A stretch of 24,000 bases of DNA from Paludibaculum fermentans (GTDB lineage: Bacteria > Acidobacteriota > Terriglobia > Bryobacterales > Bryobacteraceae). The DNA is taken from assembly GCF_015277775.1 (NCBI RefSeq), contig NZ_CP063849.1, positions 9,288,711-9,312,710 of the forward strand, written 5' to 3'. A program made the position numbers and the translations under genes. The notes beneath the pieces are model-generated. The model did not search any database. It was given only the letters and a program-made list of their open reading frames with translations, and had not been told where the DNA came from. Every line of letters starts with the position of its first letter. Within the stretch, counting starts at the first letter, position 1. Below are positions 864 to 2,492 of the stretch, piece by piece.

Positions 864-2492
864 ATGCCAAGAATCCTTGTTGTGGAAGACGACGCGGATC
901 AGCGTGAGATCCGTTGCCTGATACTGGAGCGGAGCGGCCACACGGCGCAGGCGGCGGCTTGCTCCGCTGATGCCCTGGCTCACGTCGATGCGCACGATTC
1001 AGACTGTGTTTTGATGGACTTGCGGTTACCCCGGCCCAGCGACGGGCTGCAGTTGATCCAGGATATCCGGGCGCGCGACGCGCGGCTCCCCCTGGTGGTC
1101 CTTTCCGGCTGGCCGGAGGATCTGGAGAAGAGCCCATTGGCCGGGGCGGTCAGCGCCACGTTGAAGAAGCCGGTGGCGACCGATCGCCTGCTGCGGACCA
1201 TCAACCGCCTGCTGCCGGTCCTGCTGCTGCTGTTGATTTGTGCCGGGATGTCGAGGGCTCAAAGCCGGGCGTTCCCCTTCCAGGTGGCCCAGGCCGGGGA
1301 AGTGCTGGCGGAGCTCACGATGTCGTCGCCCGGGTCCGACTGGGCAGTGGCGGGTAAAGAAGGCTCTTTGGCGGCGATCAGCGTGGACGCGCAGCCGGCC
1401 CAGCACCTGATGGTGACCGGGCCCGAGCGCACTTACCACATCTTTCTCGGTCAACTTGCAGCGGGGCCTCATACCTTAAAGGTGGAACGGCAGGCCGCGG
1501 ACTCGGCCGCCGGTGCCGGCCTGGCGGTTTTCGGCGCGCGGTTCGAGAAGTCCGGCAGCGACTTCATCGCGAACGCGCCCATCCTGCTGGCGCGCCTCAA
1601 CACCTTGGGCAAGTTCACTGACGTGCCCCTGATGGCGTACTGCACACGGGGCCACGACGAAGACGGCTCCTTCCTGGAATACACGGTGATCTTCACCAAT
1701 GAGGACGGCGGCACCTCGACGCGCGACCTCATGGCCCGCTGGGGCCGTACCACCGATATCGAGTACATCTATCGGGTTTGGCTGGATGCGGCCGGGAAGC
1801 CGAAAAAGACGCTCATCCAGACCAAGGGACACGAGGACGTACCGTACAACGGGATCCGGATTGGCTCGCACCCTGTACTCATGCCGGTGACCGATAACAA
1901 TATGGTGGAGCCGGCCGCCGAGAACGCCTCGCGGCTGCGCTATCAATTGACTCCGGTGCTGGCCGACCTGAGCGACGGCGCCCGCGAGAAAGTCATGGAT
2001 GCGGCTCCTTTCACCTATGAGATCGCGTCGAAGGAGCTGCAGCGGGAAGGGAAGCTGCGCCCTTTCGGAACCTTCCAGGGCGAGAATATCAGCGACGCGA
2101 GGAACTATCTGGTGGTGGAGCTGAAGGTGAGCTCGACACTGGCCGGTGTCCAGGTGCTCATCCAGCGCAAGGGCGAGAAGAAGTGGCGCGGCTCGGCCTT
2201 GGGCTTGGGGAAAGACTTCATCGAGCGCAGCGGTTGGGTTCGGACGCGTGTGGAACTGCCGCCCGGCACCACGGCTTCCGACCTGACGGGCTTTGGCGCG
2301 GAGTGCCTCTCGCAGCGCGATCTCGTACGCCAACCCATTGCAAAGAATGGACGTTGCGCTGTGGAAGCGATCGGCCGGATCTTCTTCCTGGACCGGGACT
2401 ACAAACCGGGACCGCGCATCCCCATCGCGGGCTTCCCCGACGGTGGGTGGCAGATGGAGGCGGGCGAGTTGTTCACGCTGGCCCTGCAGTAA
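864..2492 (+). CDS. Response-regulator receiver domain fused through one TM / signal-peptide-like helix to a ~400-aa uncharacterised C-terminal domain
   Basis: ATG 864 ([10 protein letters not shown]...) lies just after the upstream stop at 842-844; the ORF-track TTG 828 would overlap that gene. REC hallmarks are all present: acidic pair VVEDD, phospho-acceptor [14 protein letters not shown] and LKKP. This is followed directly by [27 protein letters not shown] (about nt 1190-1265) and then ~410 aa with no motif I recognise. It is a single uninterrupted frame to TAA 2490-2492. Confidence 0.75.
   Translation: [542 protein letters not shown]

Follow-up and report, generated by a model that had tools for sequence, protein, structure and literature searches.

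How could a response regulator (RR) act on a protein domain that lies on the far side of the inner membrane? RRs are regarded as acting inside the cell. In the soil acidobacterium Paludibaculum fermentans (Acidobacteriota, Bryobacterales), a single gene encodes a receiver (REC) domain joined through a short hydrophobic helix to a large, apparently exported domain, referred to here as X. This gene, REC-X, occupies positions 864 to 2492 (+) of the analyzed window, a stretch of 24,000 nucleotides (nt) representing positions 9,288,711 to 9,312,710 of the forward strand of contig NZ_CP063849.1 (assembly GCF_015277775.1). Coordinates refer to positions within this window, and amino acid (aa) residues are numbered from M1 at ATG 864. 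According to the reading favored here, albeit with slightly less than even confidence, REC acts from the cytoplasm to control whether X is tethered, released, or paired.

The open reading frame (ORF) of REC-X is unbroken from ATG 864 to TAA 2490-2492 and codes for 542 aa in three parts: REC (864..1208, +; aa 1 to 115), a short hydrophobic helix (aa 116 to 130) followed by SRA/Q (the slash marks the predicted cleavage site), and the β-rich X of ∼410 aa (1260..2489, +; aa 133 to 542). A longer form starting from TTG 828 is unlikely because the homologs have their first residue at the position corresponding to M1 (MxxxLLVEDD). The AlphaFold2 model, built with 66 homologs as input (mean pLDDT, 93.3), consists of a standard receiver fold, a single continuous helix at aa 106 to 131, and a β-rich structure that extends from residue 134 to the end. 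Besides the receiver domain, Pfam searches with this protein gave no match above noise, and NCBIfam searches returned receiver-domain matches only.

Such an architecture could result from a sequencing or assembly error that joined a receiver gene with the downstream gene of a secreted protein. Apart from the unusual architecture itself, nothing favors this explanation, which can be dismissed with near certainty. The run of the receiver into the hydrophobic segment without a stop, noted in the initial annotation, was confirmed: the ORF contains neither a frameshift nor a stop codon, and the same fusion recurs in independent assemblies, which rules out merged genes. A search with aa 104 to 542 as the query retrieved 2285 relatives, the closest of which are mostly 540 to 550 aa long and carry the receiver; others, of 415 to 437 aa, do not. 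Among species-representative genomes, 486 loci encode relatives of X, the best 80 being almost all from Bryobacterales, and the same fused architecture was found in 113 to 121 of the retrieved homologs, essentially all of them from this order. In the 87 loci examined, the receiver is fused in frame in 62 and absent in 25. The unbroken fusions come from both isolate and metagenome assemblies, including P. fermentans T20B24 and related metagenome-assembled genomes (MAGs) from the Bryobacterales (Acidobacteriota), whose proteins are ∼92% identical to that in the window, and the spacing between REC and the helix is conserved among them. Where the gene order is the same but REC is lacking, the X gene opens with an ATG and a signal peptide just past the upstream gene, and the apparent upstream extensions of these genes are out-of-frame read-through. 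The survey of homologs proposed in the initial annotation thus found X on its own, with its own signal peptide, next to a REC fusion that is conserved in most of the examined loci. Three contigs with Bryobacterales-like REC-X loci (L023, L024, and L029) carry Arcobacter or Pseudoxanthomonas labels in their records and are probably mis-binned MAG contigs.

The REC domain matches the Pfam entry Response_reg (PF00072) over aa 4 to 113 with an E value of 5.5e-17 and a score of 62.4 bits, against a cut-off of 30.2. It retains the full pocket, namely, D9, D10, the predicted phosphoryl-accepting D52 (codon 1017..1019, +; within the motif MDL), S81, and K102-P103, as expected from the earlier description of an intact and apparently phosphorylatable domain. 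In the 116 fused homologs, D9, D52, and K102 are invariant, S/T81 and P103 are conserved in 99%, and conservation of the pocket residues as a whole ranges from 84% to 100%. This pattern is indicative of selection on the phosphorylation chemistry. By every feature testable here, REC-X belongs to the receiver-domain superfamily, and its receiver can be predicted to be cytoplasmic, phosphorylatable, and maintained by selection. The PDE8A_N annotation found on some homologs merely reflects a match of the REC region to a REC-like profile.

The opposite location of X is well supported by comparisons with its relatives. The REC-less homologs start with ordinary short signal peptides, such as MALLVAFLLTIPLCAQ followed, after the cut, by SSFPF, which align exactly, and in register, with aa 116 to 132 of REC-X, and some distant members of the family carry type IX secretion sorting domains. 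The placement of X outside the cell membrane is also consistent with the presence of two cysteine residues, Cys481 and Cys498 (2304..2357, +), which are invariant in the acidobacterial clade, lie on neighboring strands in the model, and form a probable disulfide pair. The extracytoplasmic position originally proposed for the C-terminal domain therefore stands, with the receiver most likely inside and X outside, so that the switch and the part that it should control would be found on opposite sides of the membrane.

The two are connected by the junction segment (1209..1259, +; aa 116 to 132), which comprises the sole hydrophobic stretch of the protein (aa 116 to 130) and a c-region, SRA, with a predicted signal peptidase I (SPase I) site at A132/Q133 (nt 1259/1260). 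The hydrophobic stretch lies between the basic RLLRTINR and SRA/QS, and helix α5 of REC (aa 104 to 115) doubles as the basic n-region. The core of a Sec signal is ∼7 to 17 residues long; a type II signal-anchor has ∼19 residues or more with favorable insertion energy. The junction displays the basic n-region, the short core, and the small residues at −3 and −1 (RLLRTINR, core, SRA/Q) that are characteristic of Sec/SPase I signals, in agreement with its initial description as signal-peptide-like, except that it is not N-terminal: 115 residues of folded REC stand in front of it. The signals of the REC-less X homologs share with it the basic n-region, a core of 14 to 17 residues, a helix breaker, an AxA-type c-region, Gln at +1, and the same position relative to the FPF start of the mature protein; they differ in having no folded domain in front and in being slightly less hydrophobic. 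Counted back from the conserved FPF, the fused forms have Pro at −8, Ala or Leu at −7, Ala at −5 (62%), and Gln at −4 (51%), that is, P..AxA/Q, whereas their hydrophobic core drifts freely in sequence. Judging from these alignments, the junction appears to descend from the signal peptide that REC-less ancestors carried.

At the +1 position of the predicted cleavage site (Q133 in the window protein, nt 1260-1262), Gln is more frequent than any other residue and is present in 51% of the fused forms. This recalls the Q-rule of Bacteroidetes, described in a paper that does not mention Acidobacteria (PMC5837995). In one fused protein of 623 aa (P0030), an ∼80-residue Gly/Pro/Arg-rich insertion separates SRA/Q from the start of X, so that X need not abut the membrane.

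Hydrophobicity was expressed as the summed Hessa-scale energy of the most hydrophobic 19-residue stretch. The values were +2.1 kcal/mol for the fused forms (family median), +5.4 kcal/mol for the stand-alone signal peptides, and −1.0 kcal/mol for the transmembrane (TM) anchors of U, a small bitopic protein encoded just upstream of X; the window protein scored +3.5 kcal/mol. The junction is therefore best described as intermediate: its hydrophobicity is closer to that of signal peptides than to that of anchors, and it fits neither type in its simple form. It does not have the properties of a true signal-anchor (type II TM helix), with +3.5 kcal/mol for the window segment and +2.1 kcal/mol for the family versus −1.0 kcal/mol for the U anchors and an uncharged run that is shorter than the 19 to 26 residues of the latter. 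The distance from the Lys-Pro pair at the end of strand β5 to the hydrophobic run is exactly 12 residues in 88 of the 115 homologs, which implies that α5 enters the membrane segment without a linker; both the constant spacing and the continuous helix of the model suggest that REC and the helix are rigidly coupled.

A neighbor-joining tree built from 202 X domains has a REC-less root, and all fused forms fall within one 143-tip clade that also contains 27 stand-alone forms. The receiver therefore appears to have been added to an older exported protein and then to have been lost repeatedly.

These features can be combined into the following scheme. Full-length REC-X would be, at least transiently, an N-in/C-out membrane protein, in which the phosphorylation state of REC could act on X outside through the rigid helix that leads from α5 into the membrane. 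REC might do so either by pairing two chains through its α4-β5-α5 face or by shifting the short helix, which would hide the AxA/Q site from SPase I or expose it and thereby decide between tethering and release. X would then bind or process a periplasmic glycan together with U, and the whole would amount to a two-component phosphoryl signal controlling a periplasmic protein from the inside out. In its complete form, in which a phosphoryl signal crosses the inner membrane outward and the state of the receiver, conveyed by the signal-peptide-derived helix, sets either tethering versus release by SPase I or the monomeric versus paired state of X, this proposal is a tentative one, held with clearly less than even confidence.

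Several observations weigh against such control. The uncharged run did not lengthen after the fusion, its median being 15 residues both in the fused forms (n = 121) and in the stand-alone signal peptides (n = 74). A strict AxA-type site is found beside the run in 94 of the 116 fused forms (81%), compared to 48 of 66 signal peptides (73%) and 15 of the 66 U TM anchors that served as controls (23%). The helix-breaking Pro and the Gln, at −4 and +1 of this site, respectively, have been retained despite the free drift of the h-region. Read plainly, the retention of the AxA site, the Pro, and the Gln means that signal peptidase cuts and severs REC from X. The gain or loss of REC accounts for at least 15 state changes on the neighbor-joining tree, a figure inflated by tree noise and truncated gene calls, and these changes imply that X works without REC. 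No histidine kinase (HK) gene was found adjacent to REC-X in the window or in related loci. It is from gene context alone that an enzymatic nature of X can be suggested. Finally, a search of the literature for membrane-bound or transmembrane RRs and for inside-out receiver signaling, whose coverage was incomplete and did not include the main RR censuses, found no precedent. A census of archaeal proteins mentions a rare “membrane-anchored MetOD3” output domain but does not characterize it (PMC5847659).

The features of the junction listed above are also what would be expected if cleavage were constitutive. In that case, REC-X would simply contain an internal Sec signal peptide, SPase I would cut after Ala132, and X would be released in a soluble form, as in its REC-less relatives. 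REC with its stub would then act alone, as a single-domain receiver or phosphate sink that is tethered to the membrane and made 1:1 with X, or would be degraded by signal-peptide peptidases. Changes from the fused form to one with just a signal peptide, or back, are frequent at the same U-X locus and fit this explanation, as does the position of the first β-strand of X, which in the model begins two residues after the predicted site. On the other hand, constitutive cleavage gives no reason for a lasting fusion in which every catalytic residue of REC is preserved even though the fused clade has diverged to ∼45% identity, or for the strict maintenance of the zero-linker spacing, and the h-regions of the fused forms are somewhat more hydrophobic than those of the stand-alone signals. 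In yeast, a longer N-terminal extension before the signal reduces its cleavage by signal peptidase, and a core of 14 Leu residues is cleaved whereas one of 20 is not (PMC8277137). This is the one system in which the effect of such extensions was measured, a eukaryotic one with an extra subunit, and is taken as a lead only; by analogy, the added REC could retard cleavage, i.e., adding a domain in front might shift a signal towards an anchor without altering the signal itself. Constitutive cleavage, the main alternative to control by REC, appears rather unlikely, even though the junction helix resembles a cleavable signal more than an anchor and X may not remain attached to REC. With a signal-like run length and an AxA site, X may either stay tethered or be released.

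The sole kinase of the window, a hybrid HK encoded 12.5 kb away from REC-X (15014-17737, +), combines an N-terminal periplasmic domain of the ABC_sub_bind type with PAS, HisKA, HATPase, and REC domains and is a possible phosphodonor for this orphan receiver. The + strand of the window also carries a trio of adjoining genes for a CheY-like single-domain receiver (5587-5958), the phosphatase CheX (5964-6521), and a CheW-like protein (6532-6948); no genes for CheA or a chemoreceptor were found in the window. The same trio is found downstream of REC-X in two related loci (L001 and L003). However, CheY/CheX genes lie within 4 kb in only ∼10 of the 46 fused loci with enough flanking sequence, and a linkage of REC-X to a kinase or to the CheY-CheX-CheW trio was rejected; the proximity of the trio probably reflects plain synteny.

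Without an adjacent kinase, REC would have to join another pathway, which is compatible with signaling in the opposite direction. X could be a periplasmic glycan sensor on an uncleaved anchor, the binding of a ligand to which alters the pairing of the chains and the gain or loss of the phosphoryl group by REC. In the phosphorelay of an unlinked kinase, REC-X would then be a phosphate sink or a connector under the control of the ligand. This outside-in scheme is consistent with the intact REC, with the carbohydrate-binding-module-like sandwiches of X, and with the occurrence of its family in sugar-utilization loci (see below). A fused paralog of 511 aa, P0211, has a degenerate version (SGQKTPLPSQIMATRGHTLGLQTL) of the conserved NEDGG...RWGRTTD core and an intact receiver and helix; this protein may be a non-catalytic derivative, which would fit a sensory role. 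Nevertheless, outside-in sensing is improbable, as the invariant E280, D281, D298, H323, R374, E375, and E391 of X resemble an active site more than a sensor pocket, the arguments for cleavage drawn from the run length, the AxA site, and the Pro and Gln residues apply here equally, and sensors do not usually have a receiver domain as their output. Control of X by REC remains the preferred reading.

The presence of GTG at position 1173 (1173..1175, +; Val104), just before the basic region, had led to the speculation in the initial annotation that a second, separately initiated product is made. In the strongest version of this idea, initiation at GTG 1173 would yield a secreted X with its own signal peptide, and the full-length fusion would be minor or non-functional. 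A start at codon 104 would indeed produce a textbook signal peptide. Nonetheless, codon comparison over 58 distinct loci led to the rejection of this start: GTG is found at this position in only 20 of them, and a start-capable codon (GTG or ATG) in 21; TGC, ATC, TTC (coding for Cys, Ile, and Phe), or GTC are common elsewhere. GTG makes up 54% of the Val codons at position 104, with no enrichment over the gene-wide background of 50%, and the sequence upstream of GTG 1173 (AAGCCG) is not Shine-Dalgarno-like. The existence of two products is thus highly improbable.

REC-X falls outside every described class of RR output. Similarly to such canonical RRs as CheY, PhoB, NtrC, and PorX, it has an N-terminal REC domain with a complete phospho-acceptor pocket and an above-threshold match to PF00072. 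It differs from them in that the remainder of the protein would lie across the inner membrane, no cytoplasmic DNA-binding, enzymatic, or protein-binding output is present, and no cognate kinase is encoded next to it. In its signaling logic, the proposed REC-X is closest to LapD of Pseudomonas fluorescens, an inside-out receptor for cyclic di-GMP (c-di-GMP) in which a module in the cytoplasm acts through the membrane to control an output domain in the periplasm (PMC3032553). The two proteins have no domain in common. LapD, with its degenerate GGDEF-EAL receptor, reads c-di-GMP through the EAL domain and has, in addition to a HAMP domain, two TM helices and a periplasmic domain of the LapD/MoxY type, which sequesters the LapG protease; Pfam detects no GGDEF-EAL, HAMP, or LapD/MoxY domains in REC-X, where the input would be phosphorylation of an Asp residue, relayed by one short helix. 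With the bitopic one-component regulators of the ToxR/CadC type, REC-X shares only the N-in/C-out single-pass layout with a cytoplasmic signaling domain and a periplasmic one. Those regulators signal from the outside in and have a true TM anchor and a winged-helix domain that binds DNA, whereas REC-X has a receiver domain and a signal-peptide-like helix. If confirmed, a receiver wired to an exported domain would add the periplasm to the sites at which two-component systems are known to have their outputs, and REC-X would represent an RR with an extracytoplasmic output combined with regulated signal-peptide cleavage in bacteria. The family also offers a natural test bed for the behavior of a signal peptide placed behind a folded domain, with fused and unfused pairs available at the same locus.

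The models divide X into an N-terminal sandwich (approximately aa 134 to 232), a central conserved core (∼240 to 412), and a C-terminal sandwich (∼415 to 542). Neither Pfam, searched both with the single protein and in a scan of 22 members, nor NCBIfam contains a match to X, and sequence-profile searches against the PDB with two alignments, the narrow A2 and the broad A4, found nothing meaningful, the matches to ClpC and DltA being spurious. The C-terminal domain thus proved to be as unassignable by sequence as first described. Foldseek searches of the PDB detected partial similarity to jelly rolls of the CBM6/CBM35 type (∼100 residues), to N-terminal modules of GH2 enzymes, and to the NLP fold (∼170 residues; probability, 1.0; target TM-score, 0.43 to 0.45), with whole-domain TM-scores of at most 0.24; among the viral models, it detected generic sandwiches of receptor-binding proteins. 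With the CBM6/CBM35 and NLP folds, X shares a partial fold alignment but no detected sequence similarity, and its conserved NEDGG... core has no counterpart in either family. An assignment of X to the Nep1-like (NLP) cytolysins was rejected because of the absence of a Pfam NPP1 match and of the heptapeptide GHRHDWE and because the fold similarity is only partial.

The signature motif of the X family (1698..1766, +; aa 279 to 301), with family-wide invariant E280, D281, G283, and D298, served as a search pattern. In addition to these four residues, P239, D253, L289, G294, H323, R374, E375, E391, and L509 are invariant over 69 diverse members, and such a set of charged Asp, Glu, His, and Arg residues would be more typical of a catalytic or metal-binding site than of a scaffold. 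An exhaustive profile search yielded 1204 clusters at the 50% identity level, including 390 below 1e-30. The distant members combine X with the aforementioned type IX sorting domains, Ig-like ASH domains, sugar-binding GH2_N modules, or M14 peptidase or PHP domains.

The genomic surroundings of the stand-alone X genes are those of sugar utilization. In 80 metagenomic loci, a gene for a TonB-dependent-receptor-like barrel is located upstream of X on the same strand in 22, a Zn-dependent dehydrogenase gene, mostly just downstream, in 13, the ATPase of a ribose-type ABC sugar importer in 16, the permease of such an importer in 9, and a mixed cluster of periplasmic sugar-binding and LacI-family proteins in 12. 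At least one of these recurring neighbors is present in 27 of the 38 loci of at least 8 kb; 10 of these loci contain two or more, and 8 of the 10 the full set. One subclade of six stand-alone loci has the order X, two GH130 genes, and an ABC importer; this association is real but limited to these six loci and was not generalized to the entire family. The recurrence of X in loci with TonB-type receptors, GH130 enzymes, and ABC importers and its CBM6/CBM35-like sandwiches indicate that X is most likely a periplasmic or secreted protein that binds or processes glycans. REC aside, X represents a large unannotated exported family of at least 1200 clusters at 50% identity, found in the sugar-utilization loci of soil bacteria, and a candidate new carbohydrate-active family. 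In nine of the metagenomic loci (including L120:3225-4991 and L172:6091-7725), the stand-alone X gene is preceded by a gene for an unannotated protein of ∼545 aa, mostly on the same strand and with a median gap of ∼150 nt; this protein has no Pfam match.

The gene immediately upstream of REC-X in the window, gene U (362..844, +), encodes a bitopic protein of 160 aa with a long TM helix followed by a β-sandwich resembling DUF3426, DUF2393, and FxLYD. Its Pfam matches to DUF2393 and DUF3426 are both below the cut-offs; the NCBIfam FxLYD match scores 31 bits against a cut-off of 23. The initial annotation had listed this small membrane-anchored β-domain protein as part of the context. It is found directly upstream of X, on the same strand, in 73 of the 87 loci, with or without REC, and can be considered a conserved upstream partner of X. 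U overlaps the 3′ end of a PmbA/TldD-family peptidase gene (7..372, +; Pfam PmbA_TldD_3rd, E value of 2.5e-40), and REC-X is followed, 5 nt past its stop codon, by a gene of the DUF167/YggU family (2498..2767, +; PF02594, E value of 2.2e-24), the last one in the apparent operon. The four genes of this codirectional run (pmbA/tldD, U, REC-X, and DUF167/yggU) are separated by −11, 19, and 5 nt, with no promoter-like or terminator-like sites found between them. In REC-fused loci, PmbA is encoded upstream in 41 of 58 cases and DUF167 downstream in 47 of 58, and both accompany mainly the fused forms, which fits a single orthologous locus inherited vertically.

Two other genes of the window, both on the opposite (−) strand, encode proteins with recognizable domains. 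One, at 10397-12964, codes for an 854-aa protein with the PDZ-GAF-SpoIIE domain organization (a PP2C-type phosphatase). The other, at 2771-3895, codes for a protein with a heavy-metal-binding domain (HMBD, CPxC...CPxC). The likely true N terminus of the latter, MYRRHFLATAAGLPVLLGQ, contains a twin-arginine-like RRxFL motif, which suggests that this protein is exported by the Tat pathway.

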